64,000 nt of DNA from a candidate division FCPU426 bacterium (GTDB taxonomy: Bacteria; Oederibacteriota; Muellerivitia; Muellerivitales; DAHXKG01), in the NCBI GenBank assembly GCA_027366525.1, contig DAHXKG010000008.1:26556-90555 (forward strand), read 5' to 3'. The notes under the pieces were generated by a model. It did not search any database. It was not told the DNA's origin and was given only the letters and a program-made list of their open reading frames with translations. Below, piece by piece: positions 19,654 through 59,225 of the stretch (position 1 is its first letter; each line of letters begins with the position of its first letter). A program made the translations under genes and the position numbers.

Positions 19654-21483
19654 ATGTCTAATGAAGCGATGTTTAGTGCGGTTTCAGGCCTGCAAGCAGA
19701 CAGCACATGGCTGGATGTTATCGGAAATAATATTTCCAATCAAAATACCGTTGGTTATAAAGCCAGTCGTTTGGAATTTGCAAGCCAGCTCAGTCAAACC
19801 TTAAATGCGGGTAGTGGTCCAGATCCCGGACAAAATTTAGGTGGTGTGAACCCGATGCAAGTTGGATTGGGTACTCGGGTTGAATCGATTCAAACTCTTT
19901 TTACGGAAGGCCCATTACAGCAGACGGGTATTTCTACGGATATTGCGATTGTGGGAAATGGTTTTATTGTTGCCAAGCAAGGATCGCAAACCGTATACAC
20001 GCGAGCTGGAAATTTAACATTTGATGGAAATGGAAATTTGGTTACGGCAAATGGTGCCATTGTTCAAGGCTACACTGCGTCGGAACAATTTACACAACAA
20101 ACGATTAACGCGGGTGCGGCGCCTCTAGTAGTTACATATTCTTCAGAAACTTTAACGACGAATGGAGTGCCTCAAAACATTCAAATCAATCAAAGCTTAA
20201 CCATTCCAGCTAAAGCAACATCCCAGGTTAATTTCACCGGTAACCTTGATTCATTTCAACAAGCAGATCAGCCAGGTGGCGTGTTGAATCTTGCGGTGGG
20301 TGGTGTGGATCAGCTTCCCGTTGCCGCTGCTACTTTCGCAGCAACAGCCAATCTTGAAGCTAACCCTAATAATGCAGCGGATACCGTCTTGCATCAAGAT
20401 GGAAATTACGCATTAAACGGTGCTGCAGCAGGCGCACAACAAGCCAATCCTTTAGTAACGGGTGGTGGTGTGAGTATTGCTGCTGCAAACGCTGATGCAA
20501 ACTATGTTTGGAATCAGAATCCACCGGTACCACCTGCCAAAACGGTTGTGACGACGATTTATAATTCAGTTGGAGACCCAATTCAAGTTACAACGCTATT
20601 TTATCAAGTTAATGATTTGGGACAGGCTGGAATTAACACTCCAACATCGGCTCAACCAAGTCAGGTTGCTTATGCGTGGTATTCTTTTAATACAACCGGA
20701 GGAGTACAACCCTATACCGGAGCTACGACAGCAACTCAAACTCCAAATTTATTGGGTGGATCAGGTATTATTGAAGGGTACAGCAGAAATACAGGAAATC
20801 AGTATGAAGGGGATTTAATATATTTTAACACGGATGGTTCGTTGGCATCCATGGGAGGAGTCGATGTAACTACGGGAACTCAAGTGGCCCCAACACTTTA
20901 TATCCCTCCGGCTAATCCAGGGATTCCAGCCGCTTCTCCGTTACCCACTAACGGCGCTCAAATTGTCGCTGCACAGCTTAACTTTGGGACAGCTGGAACA
21001 CTGGGTTTTGGTCAAAGAAATGGTCTTTTCAGTGATGCAGAAGGCAGCTATCAAGTAGTCAATGGGGTGAACACGTATGTACCGAGCAGTACAGCGTATG
21101 TGTCATCACAGAATGGTTATGCCGATGGTACCTTGCAGAGTGTGAGTTTTGACCAAACAGGAACGATTCAGGGTGCGTTTAGCAATGGACAAACGGTAGC
21201 ACTGGGGCAAATTGTTATGGCCAATTTTGCCAATCCGGATGGATTGAACAATATTGGTGGTACAGATTTCACGCCATCTTCCAATTCGGGACCAGAGTAT
21301 GTTGGATTGGCTGGTACCAATGGGTTGGGGACGGTTCAAGGAAGCACATTGGAAATGTCTAATGTGGACTTGACAACGGAACTATCCAACATGATTATTG
21401 CTCAAAATGCATTTGATGCAAATGCAAGAGTTGTTACGGTAGTGAGTCAAGAAGATCAGACTCTAACTCAATTGGGCCTGTAA
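19654..21483 (+). CDS. flgE: flagellar hook protein FlgE (copy 1)
   Basis: N-terminus FSAVSGLQADSTWLDVIGNNISNQNTVGYKASR and C-terminus GSTLEMSNVDLTTELSNMIIAQNAFDANARVVT. 609 aa with no Cys. Confidence 0.9.
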   Translation: MSNEAMFSAVSGLQADSTWLDVIGNNISNQNTVGYKASRLEFASQLSQTLNAGSGPDPGQNLGGVNPMQVGLGTRVESIQTLFTEGPLQQTGISTDIAIVGNGFIVAKQGSQTVYTRAGNLTFDGNGNLVTANGAIVQGYTASEQFTQQTINAGAAPLVVTYSSETLTTNGVPQNIQINQSLTIPAKATSQVNFTGNLDSFQQADQPGGVLNLAVGGVDQLPVAAATFAATANLEANPNNAADTVLHQDGNYALNGAAAGAQQANPLVTGGGVSIAAANADANYVWNQNPPVPPAKTVVTTIYNSVGDPIQVTTLFYQVNDLGQAGINTPTSAQPSQVAYAWYSFNTTGGVQPYTGATTATQTPNLLGGSGIIEGYSRNTGNQYEGDLIYFNTDGSLASMGGVDVTTGTQVAPTLYIPPANPGIPAASPLPTNGAQIVAAQLNFGTAGTLGFGQRNGLFSDAEGSYQVVNGVNTYVPSSTAYVSSQNGYADGTLQSVSFDQTGTIQGAFSNGQTVALGQIVMANFANPDGLNNIGGTDFTPSSNSGPEYVGLAGTNGLGTVQGSTLEMSNVDLTTELSNMIIAQNAFDANARVVTVVSQEDQTLTQLGL

Positions 21484-21545: not shown

Positions 21546-22568
21546 TTGTTTAGGATTAAATCAGTTTGTGATAATATCCAAGTGCTTAAGCCTTTTAAAA
21601 AAAACCAGTTATTCTACTGGTTAATAATGGGTTTTTTTTTTATTTCAGTTTGTTTAGCAGGTTGTAGTTCAAACCCAACTTCGAATCAAGTTTCAAATTT
21701 TACAGTTCTTGCATCATTTTCATCGAATCAGTCAGTAACCCTTCAAGCACCCTATGGGATCTATGTGGCTCCTTCTACTGGAAATGTGTATGTAACTAAT
21801 TGTAACCCATCGGCGAATGAACCGGCCATAGTTGAATTATCAAGTAATCTGACGTATATAGCGGGCTTTGGAAAAACTAGCGCTACGTTCGATCAAAATC
21901 AAGCAGGAACTTTTTTTCAACCACGTGGAATCACCTCAGATGGAACGAATTTCTACATTTCAGATTGGCAGAATAGTCAAGTGCAAGGTTACAATGGGTC
22001 ATCTTTTTTTATAGCTCCCGTATCACCCGTACAAGAAGATCCTTGGGGGATTGATTATGATCGTAGTGCGACCTCACTTTTAGTGGTTGAAAATGCTGAA
22101 TTCCAATCCAACTCCAACTCCAACTTGAGTCAAGTTTATTCTTTTAACATAGGCTTAAGCGCGTCAAGTCCTTTAGAAAATATCACTCAACCGATTGATT
22201 TAATCGGAGTAACGGCCGATTCAGCGGGCAATATCTATGTGACAGATAATAAGAATGAGCGAATTATCAAGTTTAATTCAGCTGGTGTTTCTTTGACTTC
22301 CTGGGGGTCTCGTGGAAGCCTGCCAGGACAGTTTTCGTCAGGCATTTCAGGCATTATGGCCGACAGTTCCAATAATATTTGGGTTACAGATATGGGAAGT
22401 GGTGCGGGTTCAATTCAGGAATTTTCGAATAGTGGAGCTTTTGAAGGGGAATGGAAGGCCCCGCCGAGTCTTTCTCTTTTTGCGCCGGCGGATATCCAAA
22501 TTGGCCCAAATGGCAATTTTTATGTATGTGATGCTGAAAATAGTGTAGTCTATGAGCTTAGTTTATAG
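21546..22568 (+). CDS. NHL-repeat beta-propeller lipoprotein
   Basis: Probable lipobox FFFISVCLAGC (alternative start near 21627). At least five NHL-like repeats (NVYVTNCN, NFYISDWQNSQVQGY, NIYVTDNKNERIIKFN, NIWVTDMGSGAGSIQEF, NFYVCDAENSVVYEL). Confidence 0.65.
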   Translation: MFRIKSVCDNIQVLKPFKKNQLFYWLIMGFFFISVCLAGCSSNPTSNQVSNFTVLASFSSNQSVTLQAPYGIYVAPSTGNVYVTNCNPSANEPAIVELSSNLTYIAGFGKTSATFDQNQAGTFFQPRGITSDGTNFYISDWQNSQVQGYNGSSFFIAPVSPVQEDPWGIDYDRSATSLLVVENAEFQSNSNSNLSQVYSFNIGLSASSPLENITQPIDLIGVTADSAGNIYVTDNKNERIIKFNSAGVSLTSWGSRGSLPGQFSSGISGIMADSSNNIWVTDMGSGAGSIQEFSNSGAFEGEWKAPPSLSLFAPADIQIGPNGNFYVCDAENSVVYELSL

Positions 22569-26206: not shown

Positions 26207-27154
26207 TTGAGAAAAATTTTTGTTATTTTGATGGTCTTTTTTTTAACAACAGGGGTTAGTTTAGCTGCCTCGCCTGGAACAACCGGAGGGAGCATTCTTC
26301 AAGTGGTGGAAGGCGCCATTCCAGCAGGTATGGGGGGGGCTTTTACCGCGATTGCAAGTGGTGATTATGCCATTGATTATAACCCGGCAGGATTGGTTTC
26401 CTTGGATGCTCCGGAAGCGGTGGCAATGTATCACTCTGAATTAGCAACTATTTCAGATGATTATTTTACCTTCGCGACTCCCATTAATACTACTCAAGCA
26501 ATTGCGTTGCATATTAGTTATGATTATATTCCGCCCATTAACAATGGAAATGGCAATCCGGCAGTTAATGCGTATGATATCTTATTTATGGGTACCTATG
26601 CATTTAAACTATCCAATTTTATTCAACTGGGTGCATCTTTAAAATATTTGAGGTCAGTTTTAGCTTATTATGGAACTTCAGCAATTGCTGTAGATTTAGG
26701 GGGACAAATTTCTCATCTGCCTTTTGGATTAAAGGGCGGCCTGGCCATTCAAAATCTGGGTGGACAGTTAAAATATTTGAGTGTGGGTGTGCCCTTACCT
26801 CTGATTATTCGCATTGGGCTTGGATGGGAAACATTGGTTGATCAAAAACGCAAATTAGAACTAGATTTAGATGTTGTGGATGATTCAAGTGAAGGCATGG
26901 GGATTCGATTGGGTGGGGAATATTGGGTGTTTCCAAGATTGTTTGCAATTCGAGCTGGAATCAATAAAATTTCGCAAAATGTTTATAATAGTGGATTCCC
27001 TCCAAGTCTTGGATTTACTTTGACAGATGAAGTTGACTCCAATAAGTATTCGTTAGATTTTGCCTACAACCCGGCTACTTTACCGGGATCCATTGTCGAT
27101 AATACGTATTTAGTGTCTTTGCGTTGTTCATTTGAAAACTGGACAATATTTTGA
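26207..27154 (+). CDS. PorV/PorQ (FadL-like) family outer-membrane beta-barrel protein, paralog
   Basis: Signal peptide plus AIPAGMGGAFTAIASGDYAIDYNPAGL motif. 315 aa, ends in F. TTG start. Confidence 0.55.
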   Translation: MRKIFVILMVFFLTTGVSLAASPGTTGGSILQVVEGAIPAGMGGAFTAIASGDYAIDYNPAGLVSLDAPEAVAMYHSELATISDDYFTFATPINTTQAIALHISYDYIPPINNGNGNPAVNAYDILFMGTYAFKLSNFIQLGASLKYLRSVLAYYGTSAIAVDLGGQISHLPFGLKGGLAIQNLGGQLKYLSVGVPLPLIIRIGLGWETLVDQKRKLELDLDVVDDSSEGMGIRLGGEYWVFPRLFAIRAGINKISQNVYNSGFPPSLGFTLTDEVDSNKYSLDFAYNPATLPGSIVDNTYLVSLRCSFENWTIF

Positions 27155-27221: not shown

Positions 27222-27297
27222 GCCGAGGTAGCTCAGTTGGTAGAGCGACGGACTGAAAATCCGTGCGTCGCCGGTCCGATTCCGGCCCTCGGCACCA
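27222..27297 (+). tRNA. tRNA-Phe (anticodon GAA)
   Basis: Cloverleaf read from the sequence: acceptor GCCGAGG/CCTCGGC, D-arm GCTCAGTTGGTAGAGC, anticodon loop CTGAAAA, T-arm GCCGG-TCCGATT-CCGGC, discriminator A, encoded CCA. Confidence 0.9.
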
Positions 27298-40840: not shown

Positions 40841-41797
40841 TTGATATGGAAAATGATGAATAACCAACTAGTTCAAAAATATCAATGGATCAAAGAGAGT
40901 TTGGAAAAATACGGTTTACATGTTGAAAATTATCAAACGATTCAATATGGGATACAATTTAAAATTGTGGATAAGAATGGGGCATTCTTTTTGCGAATAT
41001 TTCAAAATAAAAAAAATGGGATCGTAATTGATTATTCCCAAATTCGCTCGGAATTTAAATTGGAAAAGATTAAAAACATTTTAGAGTCTACGCACAAGAG
41101 CGTTGAAACGAATGATGCCGATTTTCTAATTAATTTTCCCGTTATTGGAACCGATGAATCAGGCAAAGGGGATTATTTTGGGCCTTTAGTGGTTGCAGGA
41201 GTTAGTTTGACTGAATCCACAGAAAAAATGTTAAATAAAATAGGTGTTGTCGATTGTAAACGACTAAGTGATGAGATGAATATCAAACTTTCGGAAGCAA
41301 TCTACAAAATATGCGATGACCACGTATCGGTTGTATCGATTTCACCTGAGAAATACAATGAACTTTACGAACAATATCGCATGCGAAATGAAAAATTAAA
41401 TGAAATGCTTTCATCAGTTCATGTCGAAATTATAAAAAAATGCATGTCTCGAATCAACCCTTCAACGATCGTTGTTGATCAATTTGCAAACGAAAGACTT
41501 ATTTTAAGCCAGCTCCACAATGTTGTTCCGCCGGAAGCTCGCTTGATTCAAACGCATGAAGCCGAACGATTTATAGCGGTTGCTGCTGCTTCCGTGATTG
41601 CGCGAGCAAAATTTTTGAACGAATTGGAGTTGTTAAAGGACAAATATCAGTTCCCCTTTCCCAAAGGTGCTTCTCAGGAGGTGATTCATACGGGGATAAA
41701 GTTTGTAAAACAATTTGGGAAACCCTTACTGTCTCATGTCGCTAAGCTACATTTTAAAACAACCGATTTCGTTTTGAATGCTGGGGGCTCCGATTAG
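40841..41797 (+). CDS. rnhC: ribonuclease HIII
   Basis: Catalytic motif VIGTDESGKGDYFGPLVVAGV of the RNase HII/HIII family, plus a roughly 90-aa N-terminal extension characteristic of HIII. Confidence 0.75.
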   Translation: MIWKMMNNQLVQKYQWIKESLEKYGLHVENYQTIQYGIQFKIVDKNGAFFLRIFQNKKNGIVIDYSQIRSEFKLEKIKNILESTHKSVETNDADFLINFPVIGTDESGKGDYFGPLVVAGVSLTESTEKMLNKIGVVDCKRLSDEMNIKLSEAIYKICDDHVSVVSISPEKYNELYEQYRMRNEKLNEMLSSVHVEIIKKCMSRINPSTIVVDQFANERLILSQLHNVVPPEARLIQTHEAERFIAVAAASVIARAKFLNELELLKDKYQFPFPKGASQEVIHTGIKFVKQFGKPLLSHVAKLHFKTTDFVLNAGGSD

Positions 41798-52476: not shown

Positions 52477-55251
52477 TCATGTTAATTTTGCTGAAGTGTT
52501 CAAGAAAAGACAAGCCTTTAGGAAATTATTTTCTTGAGAATAGGCAAGTTCAAATCCAAGTTTCCGAACTAGGTTTTGCATTTTTATATTTTCAGGTAAA
52601 ATATGCCCAACAATAGTTTCTAATCCTTCTTGTTTCCCAATCATAATTAATTGTTGTAGTAACTCAAATCCAACGCCTTGATTTTGCCAGGCATCACTGA
52701 CAACAACGGAAAATTCACGTTCGAATGGCTTAGCAGAACGGCTAAGACGAGCCACCCCTAAAATAAAGTCTTCTTTCTGTGCATTACAATAGTGAGCTAC
52801 TAAGGCCATTTCTCGAGCATAATCAATAAAACAAAGACGTAATAAACGATCATGGGCAATGCGTTGATTCAAGTTTAATGCTTTAAAATATCGTTGATAA
52901 ACACTTTGTTCTGATAGTTCTTTGTGAAATTTGATTAAAAGGGGCTCGTCTTCAGGACTGATAGGACGAATGGTAATTAACTGATTGGTTTTGGAGTGAA
53001 TGGATTTTAAATATTGAATAGGATAAGGACGAATGGCAGGCTTGGGCAGTAATTTAGGATCTAAAGTCAATGGATGTAAAACCATTCGAGCATCTAGGGA
53101 TAAAATTTGATCGGGCGAAGCTAAGAGCGGGTTAATATCGACTTCTTTTAATAAGGGTTGCTCTACAATCATCTGGCAGAATCGAACAATAAGTTTTTCC
53201 AATGCTTCCATGGGAATAGGTGCTCTTCCTCGGACGCCTTTAAGGGCCGAGTGAATTTTAGTTTGTTCAATCATATTTCGCGCAAGAACGGTATTTAGCG
53301 GTGGAATTTCTAATGTAGTATCTTTAAAAACTTCAACTAATTGCCCGCCAAGTCCAAAAAGGACAATGGGCCCAAATTGCGGATCAAGACTGCTTCCTAA
53401 AATTAATTCGTAACCTTCTGTACGGATCATCGGTTGAACGGTCACTCCTTGGAAATGGGAGGCCCCAGCTTTTTGAGTAACAGTAGTTTTAATTAAGACA
53501 AAAGCTTGTTCAACGGCTTCAGGCGTTTTCAAGTTTAATTGCACGCCTCCAACATCGGTTTTATGTGAAAGAGTGGTTGAATTAAGCTTAAGAACAACAG
53601 GGAACCCAATTTGGCGTGCCGCTTGAACGGCTTCTTCAGGACTATTGGCAAGCAGGGAAGGAGTCACCGGAATGCCATAAAGACTTAAAATTTCTTTAGA
53701 CTCTTGCTCAGTTAAAAGAGTCCGATTTTCTTTCTGAATTTTTAAGAGCTTTTGAGAAACTTTTTCATAGCTCAGGCGAGAATTATTTTCTTGTATAGAA
53801 ATAGGTGTTTCATAAAGTCGGGATAGATTAAATTGATATTTCCACATGTAATTAAAAAGGTGAACGGCAGTGTCTGGATAGGAATAAGTGGGAATACCGG
53901 ATTGATTCAGAAATTGAATAATGGGATCAATTTCTAATCCACCCATAAAACTCGCAATGAGGGGTTTGGAAGGGTGTGACAGCGTCGATAATTTTTCAGC
54001 AACCTCTTTGGGATGTGTCATGGCTTGGGGGGTTAAAACGACTAAAACGCCATCAGTACTTTCACAATCAAGGGCAGTTTGAACTGCCTTAAGATATAGT
54101 TCAGGCGTTGCATCGCCTAAAATATCGATGGGATTGGAATGACTCCAATGGGGGGAAAGAAATTGGTTGAATTTATCTAAGGTTTGTTCAGAAAGGGGGG
54201 CGAGTTCGCCTCCTTCTTGAATTAAAAGATCAGTGGCAAGTACGCCAGGACCTCCCGCATTAGTTACAATGGCCAATTTTTTACCACGGGGTCTAGGTTG
54301 TTTGGAAAGAATTTCGGCAGTGTAAAAAAGATCTTCAATTTTTTCTACGCATAGAACGCCACAGCGCCGGAAAGCCGCGCGAAGAACTGCATCGCTGACA
54401 GTGAGTGATCCTGTATGTGAGGCGGCGGCTTTAGCAGCTGCTTCTGTACGTCCAGCTTTGATCACAATAATCGGTTTAGTTAAAGCCACTTCACGTGCTG
54501 AGGAAAGGAATGAATTTGCATTTCCAATACTCTCCATATAAATAATAATACTTTTGGTGTGGGCATCGTTCCCAAGATAATCAATGAGATCTCCCCAATC
54601 CAAATCGAGCATCGATCCAATGGAAACAAAAGAGCTAAACCCAACATTGGATTTGAAGCTCCAATCTAGAATGGCGGTCCCTAAGGCCCCGCTTTGACTT
54701 AGAAAGGCTACGCTTCCGGGATTGGCTATCGTGGTGGCAAAAGTTCCATTGAATTGACTATGAGGATTCATGACTCCAAGACAATTCGGTCCAATAATGC
54801 GAAAAGATTTATTATGAATGATTGTTTTGATTCGTTTCTCTAAAAGAATACCTTCATTGCCTTGCTCTTTGAATCCAGCAGAGATAACAATGGCTCCTTG
54901 AATATTACATTGGATGCATTCTTCAATAAGTTCCGGAACGGTGCGGGCAGGCGTTACAATGATTGCTAGTTCTGTGGGGTGAGGAATTTTTTGAATGCTC
55001 GGGTAACATTTTAAACCTAAAAGCTGTGAATGTTTAGGGTTAACGGGATAAAGGCCTGAATTTTTTAATGGACTTTGAAATAAATTGGTTAGGATGGAGT
55101 TCCCAACGCTTTCGGGGCGATCCGTGGCACCGATAATTGCAACCGATTGAGGTTTGAAAAAAATATCGAGTGCATGGGGTCGGGTAAGAAGTACATCACT
55201 GGATCGGTCTGGAAAGGATGGATTTACGGAAGTGGTCATAAAGTACCTCAT
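52477..55251 (-). CDS. Pat-like bifunctional ADP-forming acyl-CoA synthetase family protein with a C-terminal GNAT acetyltransferase
   Basis: N-terminal CoA-binding region ([17 protein letters not shown]), succinyl-CoA-ligase-like and ATP-grasp regions, and a C-terminal GNAT motif [15 protein letters not shown] probable alternative start is the ATG at 55239, preceded by GAGG. Confidence 0.75.
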
Positions 55252-55433: not shown

Positions 55434-56126
55434 ATGCTTACCATCAATTCTATGAAAAAAAAATCAATTCCGCTACAAAGTTTTTTAATAACGCTGGATA
55501 TATTTAAAGTTCTTCCCTCAGAAGAATTAAAACAACTCGAAAATCACTCGGTTCAAAAAGAATTTCTAAAAGGATATCCGATCCTTTGGGAAGGCGATTC
55601 TGCCGACTATGTTTGGTTTGTCAAAGAAGGACATGTAAAATCTGTAGTGCATATGCCGAATGGAAAAATTTTTACCACATGCTGGCTTCAATCTAAAAGT
55701 ATGTTTGGTACCTGCTGTGATTTAAAAGGAAATCGATATGGTTGTCATGCAATTGCCGCAAGTCATGTAACGGTTGTCGGTTTTCCTCGACAAGAATTTT
55801 TAAATTTAATGGAACGATTTCCTAAAATGACACAGGCCATTGTGGGACTGCTTTCAAAAAAACTGAAAGTTTCCAAAGAACGATTGGCATTAGATCAAGA
55901 AAAGGTCGAACGAAAAATATTGCGGCTCTTAATTGAGCTTTCGGATGAATTTGGAACAACGATTCCATTAACCCGAAGGGAAATTTCGGAAATTTTAGGA
56001 GTGACAGTAGAGACGTGCATCCGCGTATTTTCAAAATTAGAGAAACAAGAATTACTGACGAGTTCTAGAGGTAAAATCCATATTATTGATTTAAGTAAGT
56101 TAAATGGTTTTTTAACAACTGTTTAA
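55434..56126 (+). CDS. Crp/Fnr-family transcriptional regulator
   Basis: cNMP-binding beta-roll followed by C-terminal HTH RREISEILGVTVETCIRVFSKLEK. Confidence 0.8.
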   Translation: MLTINSMKKKSIPLQSFLITLDIFKVLPSEELKQLENHSVQKEFLKGYPILWEGDSADYVWFVKEGHVKSVVHMPNGKIFTTCWLQSKSMFGTCCDLKGNRYGCHAIAASHVTVVGFPRQEFLNLMERFPKMTQAIVGLLSKKLKVSKERLALDQEKVERKILRLLIELSDEFGTTIPLTRREISEILGVTVETCIRVFSKLEKQELLTSSRGKIHIIDLSKLNGFLTTV

Positions 56127-56221: not shown

Positions 56222-56704
56222 ATGGGACGGACTCAATCACATGAAAGGGCCTTATTGGCGTTAGGATGTTTTTGGGGACCTGAATTTAAGTTTAGGAAAA
56301 TTCAAGGAGTAATCTCAGTCACAGTGGGATATTGTGGAGGACATGTTCCTAATCCGACCTATGAAATGGTTTGTTCAGGCCAAACCGGCCATGCCGAATC
56401 CGTTGAAGTTGTTTTCGATCCAAACATAATTGCGTATGTGCAGCTTTTGGATATTTTTTTTACCATGCATGATCCGACTACCCGAAACCGCCAAGGGCCG
56501 GATATTGGTTCACAATATCGATCCATTATTTTCTATGACAATGATTTTCAATGGGAAATCGCAGAACAAACCAAACAAAAATATGAAACAATGAAAATGT
56601 TCAAAAATGCAATTGTAACAGAAATACGGGCAGCGACCACTTTTTATCCCGCTGAAGAATATCACCAACGTTATTTGGAAAAACAGGGTAAATTTCATTG
56701 TTAA
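56222..56704 (+). CDS. msrA: peptide methionine sulfoxide reductase MsrA
   Basis: Active-site motif GCFWGPE. 160 aa. Confidence 0.9.
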   Translation: MGRTQSHERALLALGCFWGPEFKFRKIQGVISVTVGYCGGHVPNPTYEMVCSGQTGHAESVEVVFDPNIIAYVQLLDIFFTMHDPTTRNRQGPDIGSQYRSIIFYDNDFQWEIAEQTKQKYETMKMFKNAIVTEIRAATTFYPAEEYHQRYLEKQGKFHC

Positions 56705-56835
56705 ATAAGGTTTTTTGATTGGCGGAAGAGCGGAATAATTTATCATGAAAGTTTAAGTGCATCTTTTGTTGATTTTGTTTAAAATAAGCACAATGCATAA
56801 AAATTATTCAACGGATGGGAATGGTGAACTGAAAA

Positions 56836-57318
56836 ATGAAACTTAAACCATGGATAAGTCCAAAGGTCGAAGTCCGATTAAGTCCAACGGAAGGCAAAGG
56901 AGTTTTTACAAATCAAAAAATTTTATCGGGTGAAGTTGTGGGAGTATTTGGAGGTATTGTTACTCCTGAAAAAGATTTACCTGAATTGAGAAAAAAAGTT
57001 TCAGAAGACAAGCTTTGTTTAGATCATGCCATGTATATTTATCCTGGATTTTTACTTCTCCATGATTATGAGAACGGTTGTGACCCGCTTTGTTTTGTGA
57101 ATCATTCCTGTGATGCCAATGCGCAAGTAGTGAATGGTATTGTCCTAGTAGCTAAGCGTAATATCGAACTCGGAGCGGAAGTGAATTGGAACTATAAAGA
57201 AACAGATGACATCGGTGATTGGAACTATGAATTTAAGTGTAATTGCGGTTCTAAAAATTGCACTGGATTTGTTCGGGTCGGCCCGAAGTATCGTCAGGTG
57301 ATTGTCCAAACAGTATGA
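56836..57318 (+). CDS. SET-domain protein (putative protein-lysine N-methyltransferase)
   Basis: SET signature NHSCDANA..., catalytic Tyr context ELGAEVNWNY, and post-SET cysteine cluster CNCGSKNC. 160 aa. Confidence 0.7.
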   Translation: MKLKPWISPKVEVRLSPTEGKGVFTNQKILSGEVVGVFGGIVTPEKDLPELRKKVSEDKLCLDHAMYIYPGFLLLHDYENGCDPLCFVNHSCDANAQVVNGIVLVAKRNIELGAEVNWNYKETDDIGDWNYEFKCNCGSKNCTGFVRVGPKYRQVIVQTV

Positions 57319-57344
57319 AAGATTAACCACTTAGGAAGGTACGA

Positions 57345-59225
57345 ATGAGTTTAGAAGCCTTATATACAGGAGTTTCAGGCCTTCAAGCTACAAGTACTTG
57401 GATGGATATCATTGGGAATAATATTGCCAATAGCAATACTGTTGGATTTAAAAGCAGTCGTGCTATGTTTTCAGAACAGCTAACTCAATTTTTACAATAT
57501 GGAACCAGTCCAAATAATCAATCAGGTAATGGGGGGACGGATTCAGAAGTAATTGGTCTGGGAACGAAACTTCAGGATATTCAAACATTGTTTGTTCAAG
57601 GCCCTACCTTGGAAACGGGTATTTCAACCGACATATCCATTCAAGGCAATGGATTTTTAATTGCTAAGCAAGGCAATCAGACCTATTTAACTCGGGATGG
57701 GCAACTGTCATTTGATGCGAATGGCAATTTGGTAAATGCCTCAGGGGAGCTCATACAGGGATATACAGCGGTGCCTCAGTTTCTAAAAACAGGCCTAAAT
57801 ACCTATTCCAATATTCCAGGACAACCTGCTTTGATTACGGATGCCTCTCTAACGCTCAATACCACAGGAACCATTGGCAATATTCAGATTCCTCAAGATT
57901 TAACCATGCCGCCTAAAGCCACTTCGGAGATTAATTTTAGTGGCAACTTGGATGCATTGCAGCAAGCTAATCAACCTGGTGGAATCGTTGATTTATTTCC
58001 GGGCTTTCCGGCTCCCAATGCTTCGCCGTCCTTGCCATTAGGTTTGGATTTAGCTTATTTTGGGCCTGTAGGCTTAAATCCCCAAAAGGCCCAACCTATT
58101 ATTTTGCCGGGGGGAGGAATTGCAATTCAACAAGTGGGAAATTTAGCAGGTCCAGCCGCTCCAGGATCCTCAACGGTGGAGCCAGTAGTATTGGGTGCGG
58201 TAAATTTAGGGTTCGTTAAAGCCTTTAATAATTTTGCGTGGGATCAAAATCCGCCGATTCCACCTGCCGATGAAACCTCAACCACGGTCTATGATTCGTT
58301 GGGTAACCCGCATCAAATTACCTTTCTCTTCTACCAAGTCAATGATTTAGGTTCCGCAGGTGTCAATAACCCCAATGGGCCTAATCAAGTCGCATATGCG
58401 TGGTATGCGTTTGATACCACGGGGGGCCAAAAACCGACAACAGCAAATTTGTTGGGTGGAACTGGCATTTGGGAAGGTAATTTGTCCAATCCAGGTGGGT
58501 TGACGTTTTATGACCGAAACCAAAATAATTTTTATTTTGGAGATTTGCTCTATTTCAATACGGATGGTTCTTTGGCATCTACCGGTGGTACAGAAGGAAT
58601 TGGAGGACCGGGAGGACTAGCATATCCATCAATTCCTGAAATTTATCTTCCTCCATTCAATTCCAATCCTCCCGTGTCACCGATTCCAACGGATGGTGCG
58701 GAAATTATGGGGATCCAAATTAATTTTGGGACGCCCGGGGTTTTAACACAAGGACAACGAAATGGGTTAATTAGTGATGCGGAAGGCAGCTATCAGGTAA
58801 AAAATGGACAGCAAGTTTATATTCCACAACAAACCGCGTACGTTTCATCACAAAATGGATATCCCGATGGGCAATTAGAGAGCTTGAGTTTTAATCAGAC
58901 TGGTGTAATTCAAGGTGCATTTTCGAATGGTCAAAATGTAAGCTTGGGGCAAGTTGCTTTAGCCAATGTTGAAAATACGGGTGGCCTTAATGCAAATGGA
59001 AACAACCAGTTTACTACCTCGACCAATTCAGGAGCAACTTTTGAAGGGTTGGCAGGACAAAATGGATTGGGGCTAGTCCAGGGAGGAACTCTGGAAGGCT
59101 CTAATGTGAATTTAGCAACGGAACTTTCGAATATGATTATAGCCCAAGAAGCCTTTAATTCAAATGCTCGGACAGTTACAACTGTTAACCAAGTCCTAAA
59201 GGTTTTAGATCAACTCGGTCAATGA
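57345..59225 (+). CDS. flgE: flagellar hook protein FlgE (copy 2, paralog of 19654..21483)
   Basis: N-terminus YTGVSGLQATSTWMDIIGNNIANSNTVGFKSSR and C-terminus GGTLEGSNVNLATELSNMIIAQEAFNSNARTVT. Shares long internal blocks with copy 1 (LFYQVNDLG.AG.N.P......QVAYAWY.F.TTGG). 626 aa with no Cys. Confidence 0.85.
   Translation: MSLEALYTGVSGLQATSTWMDIIGNNIANSNTVGFKSSRAMFSEQLTQFLQYGTSPNNQSGNGGTDSEVIGLGTKLQDIQTLFVQGPTLETGISTDISIQGNGFLIAKQGNQTYLTRDGQLSFDANGNLVNASGELIQGYTAVPQFLKTGLNTYSNIPGQPALITDASLTLNTTGTIGNIQIPQDLTMPPKATSEINFSGNLDALQQANQPGGIVDLFPGFPAPNASPSLPLGLDLAYFGPVGLNPQKAQPIILPGGGIAIQQVGNLAGPAAPGSSTVEPVVLGAVNLGFVKAFNNFAWDQNPPIPPADETSTTVYDSLGNPHQITFLFYQVNDLGSAGVNNPNGPNQVAYAWYAFDTTGGQKPTTANLLGGTGIWEGNLSNPGGLTFYDRNQNNFYFGDLLYFNTDGSLASTGGTEGIGGPGGLAYPSIPEIYLPPFNSNPPVSPIPTDGAEIMGIQINFGTPGVLTQGQRNGLISDAEGSYQVKNGQQVYIPQQTAYVSSQNGYPDGQLESLSFNQTGVIQGAFSNGQNVSLGQVALANVENTGGLNANGNNQFTTSTNSGATFEGLAGQNGLGLVQGGTLEGSNVNLATELSNMIIAQEAFNSNARTVTTVNQVLKVLDQLGQ

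Follow-up and report, generated by a model that had tools for sequence, protein, structure and literature searches.

A SET-domain methyltransferase gene kept upstream of a second flagellar hook gene in FCPU426-like bacteria, with the hook protein as a candidate substrate

Background

Is a SET-domain protein whose gene lies directly upstream of a flagellar hook gene an enzyme that modifies the hook? The question is raised by a 64,000-nucleotide stretch of DNA from a candidate division FCPU426 bacterium (assembly GCA_027366525.1, contig DAHXKG010000008.1, positions 26,556 to 90,555; "the window" below), in which the gene for a small SET-domain protein (we call gene and protein SET) is followed by flgE2, a second hook gene; a canonical copy, flgE1, lies in the main flagellar cluster (Table 1). 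An earlier note on this DNA had described a 160-amino-acid SET protein and a 626-amino-acid FlgE paralog with msrA (peptide methionine-S-sulfoxide reductase) and a Crp-family gene upstream, and the sequence and Pfam searches bear out this description; the gap between the two genes is 26 nt, one less than had been given.

Our analysis of the window and its relatives shows that the association of SET upstream of flgE2 is ancestral and largely reciprocal across the FCPU426-like lineage. FlgE2 is a candidate substrate of the enzyme by virtue of this gene neighbourhood only. In the reading that we tentatively prefer, SET would be a cytoplasmic S-adenosylmethionine-dependent protein-lysine methyltransferase that is functionally tied to FlgE2, and lysines of FlgE2 would be methylated in the cytoplasm, ahead of secretion by the flagellar export apparatus. 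The target could be one of two widely conserved lysines, K36 or K191, or else variable lysines at the surface, modified in a site-tolerant manner like that of FliB, the flagellin methylase of Salmonella; in the window, SET and flgE2 would be expressed from one bicistronic mRNA that starts at a sigma-70-like promoter 5' of SET. Such methylation of FlgE2 before export seems possible to us, if far from assured. The wider proposal, in which a SET lysine methyltransferase is dedicated to a lineage-specific hook paralog, with the gene pair kept across the candidate phylum and joined in one operon here, is doubtful when taken as a whole.

Conservation of the SET-flgE gene pair

Conservation of the adjacency in relatives had been put forward as a check by the earlier note, and it is found both from the SET side and, as described below, from the hook side. 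The window proteins were compared by tblastn with 28 related loci (those with the best SET matches, one genome per species), which cover flanks of 4–6 kb per side and 27 of which have room to test for flgE. These loci are from metagenome-assembled genomes, mostly named candidate division FCPU426 (one is a Firestonebacteria), that were recovered from soil, peat and groundwater. The genome to which the window belongs is absent from this collection, and its closest relatives there have SET proteins that are 67–68% identical to that of the window. An FlgE is encoded directly 3' of SET, in the same orientation, in 21 of the 27 testable loci, or in 22 if L026 is included, where flgE lies 2.2 kb downstream of SET behind an inserted gene. 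In 24 of the 28, msrA precedes SET in the same orientation. On the other hand the Crp, transaldolase and putative acetyltransferase (Pat-like) genes of the window are present in the flanks of none of them, and the idea of a stress-regulated alternative hook, which rested on the Crp gene, loses its footing with this result.

The SET subfamily is, as judged from sequence identity, confined to the FCPU426-like lineage: there are about 40 close homologues (48–68% identity), and identity drops to 37% or less outside the lineage. A tree of the SET proteins, rooted on the distant homologue in L029, contains deep lineages with identities down to 44%, and all three deep lineages that have flgE nearby have SET upstream of it, at spacings from 26 nt to 3.6 kb. 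The spacing is 26 nt in the window lineage, 184–540 nt in the main clade, and 259 nt to 3.6 kb in the L026/L027/L089/L090 group, in which L026, L089 and L090 have one to three opposite-strand genes inserted between SET and flgE. In L089 and L090 msrA is missing, and SET and flgE are still together. At least four flank configurations exist, and only msrA-SET-flgE is common to all of them. In most of the main clade msrA-SET-flgE is part of a longer synteny block of roughly 10 kb (an unknown gene, a large FlgD_ig-tailed protein, msrA, SET, flgE, an extracytoplasmic function (ECF) sigma factor, a FlgD_ig-domain protein, and an NHL protein with a type IX secretion system (T9SS) tail); other flank types have a bufferin-like cluster upstream, an ABC transporter downstream, or the Crp and transaldolase genes of the window.

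Some of these flanking genes deserve mention in their own right. The bufferin-like cluster is of the ribosomally synthesised and post-translationally modified peptide type (BufA1, MbnB/TglH/ChrH and HvfC_N) and stands directly 5' of msrA-SET in a single subgroup of relatives, with L085 (1731–3634), L018, L020, L021 and L024. The ECF sigma factor and FlgD Ig-like protein (the latter possibly an anti-sigma factor) follow flgE in most main-clade relatives (for example L025:8802–10333 and L083:7130–7951), and in L007 (6789–8167) they are still beside SET although flgE is gone. NHL-repeat proteins with a T9SS-type C-terminal sorting domain end the flgE2 block in relatives (L003:10380–11996, L019:5688–7481).

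For the reciprocal test, metagenome contigs were scanned with FlgE2-clade patterns and the genes upstream of each FlgE were classified. Two contexts predominate: msrA-SET-flgE (19 loci with a full SET gene and five with SET cut by the contig end) and fliK-flgD-flbD-like-flgE (19–21 loci). Just four of the loci that have 2 kb or more of sequence upstream belong to neither context. The FlgEs of the SET class match FlgE2 better than FlgE1, and the reverse usually holds for the flgD class. In a neighbour-joining tree of 143 FlgE sequences (midpoint rooted and without bootstrap, and so indicative), one clade of 53 holds every SET-adjacent FlgE and the window FlgE2, and FlgE1 and its orthologues (57–60% identity) form a separate clade. 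Both types occur in the genome that contains L015 (on a 1.44-Mb contig), which carries a SET-linked flgE as well as an FlgE1 orthologue, P0063. Where flgE is duplicated in tandem, the copies remain downstream of SET.

Transcription signals

The earlier note had taken the short spacing to suggest co-transcription. For this genome the idea stands, as an expectation from the 26-nt junction; it does not carry over to the relatives. In the window no terminator is predicted and no promoter motif is present in the junction, whose fold is less stable than that of shuffled sequence (z = +2.1), and terminator prediction found none from msrA to the end of flgE2. In the 21 relatives with a SET-flgE gap of 184–540 nt, on the other hand, 19 have a strong intrinsic terminator in the gap (a 10–14 bp GC-rich stem and a T-run, usually 17–90 nt past the SET stop codon), and flgE has a promoter-like motif of its own. 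This conserved motif, TCATGTTT-N11-GCCGTTAG, lies about 45–70 nt 5' of the flgE start; as TCA(A/T)GTTT-N11-GCCGTTAG it is found at L025:6695–6721 and L025:2652–2678 and also in L016, L017, L028, L014, L005 and L002. The motif is present 5' of second tandem flgE copies as well, and again 20–40 nt 5' of the large FlgD_ig-tailed gene, which msrA follows after 34–61 nt. When up to two mismatches per element are allowed, nine of 25 flgE starts score, against about one match per 8.7 kb elsewhere, and across 15 aligned SET-flgE spacers CCGTTA is invariant.

The E. coli sigma-28 consensus is TAAAGTTT-N11-GCCGATAA, and the relatives' flgE motif has its layout; it also fits the ECF sigma pattern AAC-N16-CGT. 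We regard it as a candidate alternative-sigma promoter motif (sigma-28/ECF-like) on these sequence features; it would be an unusual promoter for a hook gene. The neighbouring ECF sigma factor was considered as the protein that recognises the motif, and this was unsupported: the ECF gene lacks the motif and has a TGTATAAT-type promoter. A scan of the window found neither the relatives' GCCGTTAG motif nor other flgE motifs, and no canonical sigma-28 or sigma-54 motifs near its msrA, SET and flgE2 genes. Upstream of SET, TAnAAT is invariant in 22 relatives, and the window sequence TAAAAT at 56780–56785 aligns with it; a second sigma-70-like promoter candidate is at 56719–56746.

In relatives, then, SET and flgE are probably separate transcription units that have been kept adjacent, and msrA appears to be co-transcribed with the large gene that precedes it, not with SET. 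The simplest reading of these signals is that the window lineage lost both the terminator and the flgE promoter, so that flgE2 would now be on the SET transcript; a single bicistronic mRNA is inferred for the window because the relatives' terminator and separate flgE promoter are both missing there. A junction of 26 nt is seen in this genome alone, and operon logic was given up as a general argument for a link between the two genes.

The arrangement of promoters in relatives bears on one alternative, in which SET modifies some other product of the neighbourhood or regulon (flagellin, axial proteins, FlgD_ig-tailed secreted proteins, or the ECF sigma/anti-sigma pair) and FlgE2 is simply a marker of that regulon. 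The relatives' SET does sit between two units that share the same alternative-sigma motif (the FlgD_ig-tailed gene with msrA, and flgE), and flgE is followed by the ECF sigma and FlgD_ig-domain genes. However, none of those extra genes is beside SET in the window, and SET itself does not have the motif common to flgE and the FlgD_ig-tailed gene, and we consider this alternative unlikely.

Two further features of these intergenic regions were seen. About 140 nt 5' of SET are strongly conserved (L001–L028; window 56696–56838) and contain, in this order, ATGAAC-N17-TAnAAT, a GC-rich stretch, AAACTGTTAAAAGGA(T/C)GGTT and the ATG; hairpins of differing sequence can be drawn in this leader at single loci, and a conserved hairpin was rejected when RNAalifold gave no consensus pairs. 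A perfect DnaA-box 9-mer, TTATCCACA, lies about 60 nt 5' of the flgE promoter motif in 10 relatives (L025:6651–6659, L016:6625, L002:6662, L005:6637, L009:2844, L017:6648, L028:5887, L004:2944, L010:2063 and 4128, and L018:6600 on the minus strand), and it may be a regulator site. The window has one copy only, far off at 40966–40974.

The SET protein

The sole Pfam match of the SET protein is SET (PF00856; E = 6e-10, 39.9 bits against a cut-off of 22.4, residues 20–121), and a search of NCBIfam with it returned no family. The sequences NHSCDANA and CNCGSKNC are its residues 89–96 and 135–142. Across 22 SET homologues G22, N89, H90, C92, Y120, C135, C137 and C142 are invariant; these are the GxG motif of the SET-N part, the NHxC motif and catalytic tyrosine of the SET-C part, and the post-SET CxCx4C zinc ligands. 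In a comparison with the PDB, the family profile aligns from one end to the other with the SET domain of MLL1, including the post-SET region (E = 1e-20), and identity to the MLL1 and NSD1 SET domains is 26–30%. The AlphaFold2 model is confident (mean predicted local distance difference test score, pLDDT, 92), and the best PDB matches that Foldseek found with it are the SET domains of NSD1, MLL1 and ASH1L (E about 3e-9, TM-scores 0.65–0.71). With its motifs and predicted fold intact the enzyme looks active, and the earlier identification of a SET domain with a post-SET region, which had been made from the letters, is upheld at every catalytic and zinc-binding motif.

The protein has the GxG, NHSC, catalytic tyrosine, post-SET CxCx4C and SET fold in common with MLL1/KMT2A, NSD1, ASH1L and Chlamydia NUE. 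Unlike the MLL1/NSD1-type enzymes it has no partner domains, belongs to a free-living uncultured lineage and is encoded beside msrA and a hook gene; and a conserved tryptophan in its family replaces the MLL1 tyrosine of ELTYDY. By sequence it is a bare, cytoplasmic catalytic domain of 160 amino acids that lacks a signal peptide, a targeting region or any extra domain. Bacterial SET effectors exist (PMC2904774, PMC3980110), most of the studied bacterial SET proteins being effectors aimed at host histones (PMC3980110), and the best solved relatives of the window protein are eukaryotic histone methyltransferases, so one might ask whether it too is secreted to methylate eukaryotic histones, like Chlamydia NUE or Legionella RomA. 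This is very improbable, given that the relatives are from soil, peat and groundwater, that the protein is devoid of a signal or targeting region, and that its gene is in conserved chromosomal synteny with the housekeeping gene msrA.

Another conceivable role is tied to msrA: SET might be an S-methyltransferase that acts on free methionine or a derivative of it, or it might work with MsrA in dealing with oxidised or modified proteins. The model for the former is BurB of Burkholderia thailandensis, a 172-amino-acid SET protein that methylates free methionine at sulfur and binds it with residues that act through their main chain (PMC12542666; PDB 9l4t). Like SET, BurB is a small stand-alone bacterial SET protein; that such an enzyme can act on free methionine is suggestive given the msrA neighbour in the window. 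BurB matches both the SET profile (E = 4e-11) and the SET model (TM-score 0.62). Besides the 24 loci with msrA 5' of SET, the locus L029 (2373–6405; an Elulimicrobium metagenome-assembled genome, Elusimicrobia-like) has a 35%-identical SET gene beside three msrA-like genes and no flgE nearby, so the association of SET with msrA may predate, or extend beyond, that with flgE. However, the BurB match is partial (residues 87–151, within the C-terminal half, with 20% identity) and weaker than that to the MLL/NSD-type domains, and there are no burI/D/E-like genes, and no genes of the dimethylsulfoniopropionate or malleicyprol pathways, near the window SET. SET and flgE also stay together in L089 and L090, where msrA is absent, and in relatives the apparent transcription partner of msrA is the large gene before it. 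We think a role tied to msrA quite unlikely.

The hook paralogs

FlgE2 matches Flg_bb_rod (PF00460), FlgE/F/G D1 (PF22692), FlgE_D2 (PF07559) and Flg_bbr_C (PF06429), all above the cut-offs, and is 53% identical to FlgE1 over the full length. Its AlphaFold2 model has a pLDDT of 80 outside the disordered D0 linker; the best PDB match is a polar-flagellum hook FlgE (8z5y; E = 7e-29, TM-score to target 0.49), and Salmonella hook FlgE entries are matched with E-values down to 8e-28 and TM-scores to target of 0.72–0.77. As judged from its sequence and model, FlgE2 has the full length of a hook-type protein, differs from the FlgE1 that is linked to flgD, and looks intact. The position of the second flgE outside the main flagellar cluster is as the earlier note had it (Table 1). 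That cluster has the order flgF, flgG, flgA, flgH, flgI, a rod-binding protein gene, flgN, flgK, fliK, flgD, a flbD-like gene and flgE; flgE1 thus has both flgD and fliK beside it and flgE2 has neither (a matter of context, not a strict family criterion), and nothing near flgE2 suggests the second flagellar system that the note had entertained. Helicobacter pylori FlgE2 (PDB 5npy) is likewise encoded by a second FlgE-type gene away from the main hook operon, but it is only 12% identical in the structural match, and we found no description of a methyltransferase partner for second hook paralogs in the full-text literature.

Covalent chemistry at hook lysines is known from the lysinoalanine cross-link of spirochaete FlgE (PDB 6ndx). 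It requires a cysteine, and the two window FlgEs contain none, as the earlier note had remarked, which leaves the spirochaete-type feature absent from the window; a sequence search of the D1/D2 fragment for the Treponema lysinoalanine site gave no usable match. We note separately that position 350 of FlgE2 (58392–58394), an alanine in the window, is a cysteine in 39 of the 53 members of the SET-linked clade (for example in L003, L014 and L025), where it lies in the strand QV-C-YAWYAFDTTGG; it is found in none of 14 FlgE1-clade members and in one of 76 other FlgEs. A single clade-specific cysteine in an exported hook protein could form an inter-subunit bond.

Tandem flgE duplicates of two or three copies are frequent, after SET (L010, L022, L028, L085, L095, L096 and L098) as well as after flgD-flbD (L116, L118 and L129). 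In both contexts the copies resemble flagellin gene families more than they do typical hook genes.

Is FlgE2 the substrate?

A parallel for the proposed reaction is offered by FliB. In Salmonella the fliB gene adjoins the flagellin gene on the map. FliB targets lysines on the surface of flagellin, and its expression does not depend on completion of the hook (PMC7181671). The likeness lies in the cytoplasmic lysine methylation proposed for an exported flagellar protein and in an enzyme gene that lies beside the substrate gene. FliB is not a SET-fold protein, whereas the only Pfam match of the window enzyme is SET, and the analogy is a functional one only; moreover the substrate of FliB is a lysine-rich flagellin whereas FlgE2 is a lysine-poor hook protein, and methylation is proven for the former and proposed for the latter.

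A number of observations weigh against a hook-directed enzyme, beginning with the lysines. Although the window FlgE2 has 10 lysines and FlgE1 four, there is no lysine enrichment in the SET-linked clade when clades are compared (8.1 lysines per FlgE versus 7.2 and 7.7 in the other clades, or about 8 per 630 residues; single FlgE2 proteins have from 3 to 19). No lysine specific to the SET-linked clade was found. K36, the only invariant lysine of the SET-adjacent FlgEs, belongs to the universal N-terminal axial motif. Conservation of K191 is about 80% and K108 is also frequent, but all three are present in FlgE1 as well, and the clade-specific basic position 248 is mostly arginine, which a SET enzyme would not use. 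Site-specific, paralog-specific methylation is not suggested by this pattern because there is no clade-specific lysine; by analogy with FliB, a tolerant methylation of whichever surface lysines are available would be possible. The gene order is open to similar doubts. The msrA gene is conserved in the block with no obvious link to the hook, which shows that genes may keep their order here without one product being the substrate of another; many of the main-clade loci are not independent of one another because they have the longer synteny block in common. The adjacent flgE was lost and SET kept in at least four lineages (L023, the L006/L013 pair, L007 and L021), and, conversely, an FlgE2 subclade (P0154 and P0165) follows an aldo-keto reductase gene with no SET gene within 5–6 kb. 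Finally, SET and flgE have different promoter types with a terminator between them in relatives.

Most of these observations speak at the same time for an alternative in which the SET lysine methyltransferase acts on a non-flagellar substrate, for example a nucleoid-associated or translation protein, and the position of flgE2 is merely inherited order: the persistence of SET where flgE has gone, the conserved promoter region and the terminator that belong to SET itself in relatives, the lack of an FlgE2-specific lysine, the inflation of adjacency counts by the main-clade block, and an msrA that is equally conserved and yet functionally unexplained. To these must be added the distant SET homologues (27–36% identity) in bacteria of the candidate phyla radiation, Chloroflexi, archaea and others, which have no flgE nearby. 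There are, however, three features that an unrelated substrate does not readily account for. In the window and in the L026/L089 group SET is 5' of flgE even though their flanks are otherwise unrelated, non-canonical flgE paralogs are behind SET far more often than they are elsewhere, and the window genome has fused SET and flgE2 into an operon-like pair. In our judgement an unrelated substrate is almost as likely as FlgE2, and the remaining readings discussed above, taken together, make up a modest part of the possibilities. We retain methylation of FlgE2 before export as the tentatively preferred interpretation.

Other features of the locus

The coordinates of the features discussed are given in Table 1. 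The transaldolase gene (tal) is directly downstream of flgE2, at the opposite end from SET. The Crp-msrA-SET-flgE2-tal order recurs with identical spacing on a public contig of another assembly, and the exact window SET protein is present on seven contigs; the locus is not an assembly artefact, because its order is repeated on an independent contig and its SET protein on several. Divergent from the Crp gene, at 52477–55251 on the minus strand, is the gene for a 924-amino-acid protein with CoA-binding, succinyl-CoA-ligase-like, ATP-grasp and GNAT domains, an architecture that we take to be that of the Pat/YfiQ-type protein lysine acetyltransferases. A putative lysine acetyltransferase, MsrA and the SET methyltransferase are thus all encoded inside 5 kb of the window, although the Pat-like gene is not kept beside SET in relatives. 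An NHL-repeat protein is encoded after flgE1 (21546–22568, plus strand), and a weak PorV-like protein at 26207–27154. An Rfam search of the window and six related loci found one tRNA only (27222–27294).

Table 1. Features of the SET-flgE2 locus and the comparison hook gene, in window coordinates
Feature	Coordinates	Strand	Basis and remarks
SET/post-SET methyltransferase gene	56836-57318	+	160 amino acids; Pfam SET, motifs, fold
SET-flgE2 junction, 26 nt	57319-57344	+	AGGAAGG ribosome-binding site at 57333-57339
flgE2, paralogous hook gene	57345-59225	+	626 amino acids; Pfam hook-protein domains; SET-linked FlgE clade
msrA-SET intergenic region, likely SET (here also flgE2) promoter	56705-56835	+	Alignment; promoter scan
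msrA, peptide methionine-S-sulfoxide reductase	56222-56704	+	Pfam PMSR, E = 3e-63; TIGR00401
Crp/Fnr-family regulator	55434-56126	+	Pfam cNMP_binding, HTH_Crp_2
flgE1, canonical hook gene	19654-21483	+	609 amino acids; main flagellar cluster; comparison copy

Significance

The msrA-SET-flgE gene association appears to be undescribed; full-text searches of the literature brought up no paper in which a SET domain or lysine methylation is tied to a hook protein, nor one on the flagella of FCPU426. Should FlgE2 prove not to be the substrate, there would still be a stable msrA-SET-flgE neighbourhood, and an unusual hook-gene promoter of the alternative-sigma type, in an uncultured phylum. Little is known about which native substrates SET-domain proteins have in free-living bacteria, and the association names one concrete candidate. 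If the candidate is right, FlgE2 would be the first hook protein known to be methylated and, for a SET enzyme of a free-living bacterium, the first native substrate of a structural kind. Flagellar lysine methylation would then extend from the filament, where FliB acts, to the hook, a second and unrelated enzyme fold would have been recruited for flagellar modification, and the conserved second hook gene of these bacteria would have a function.

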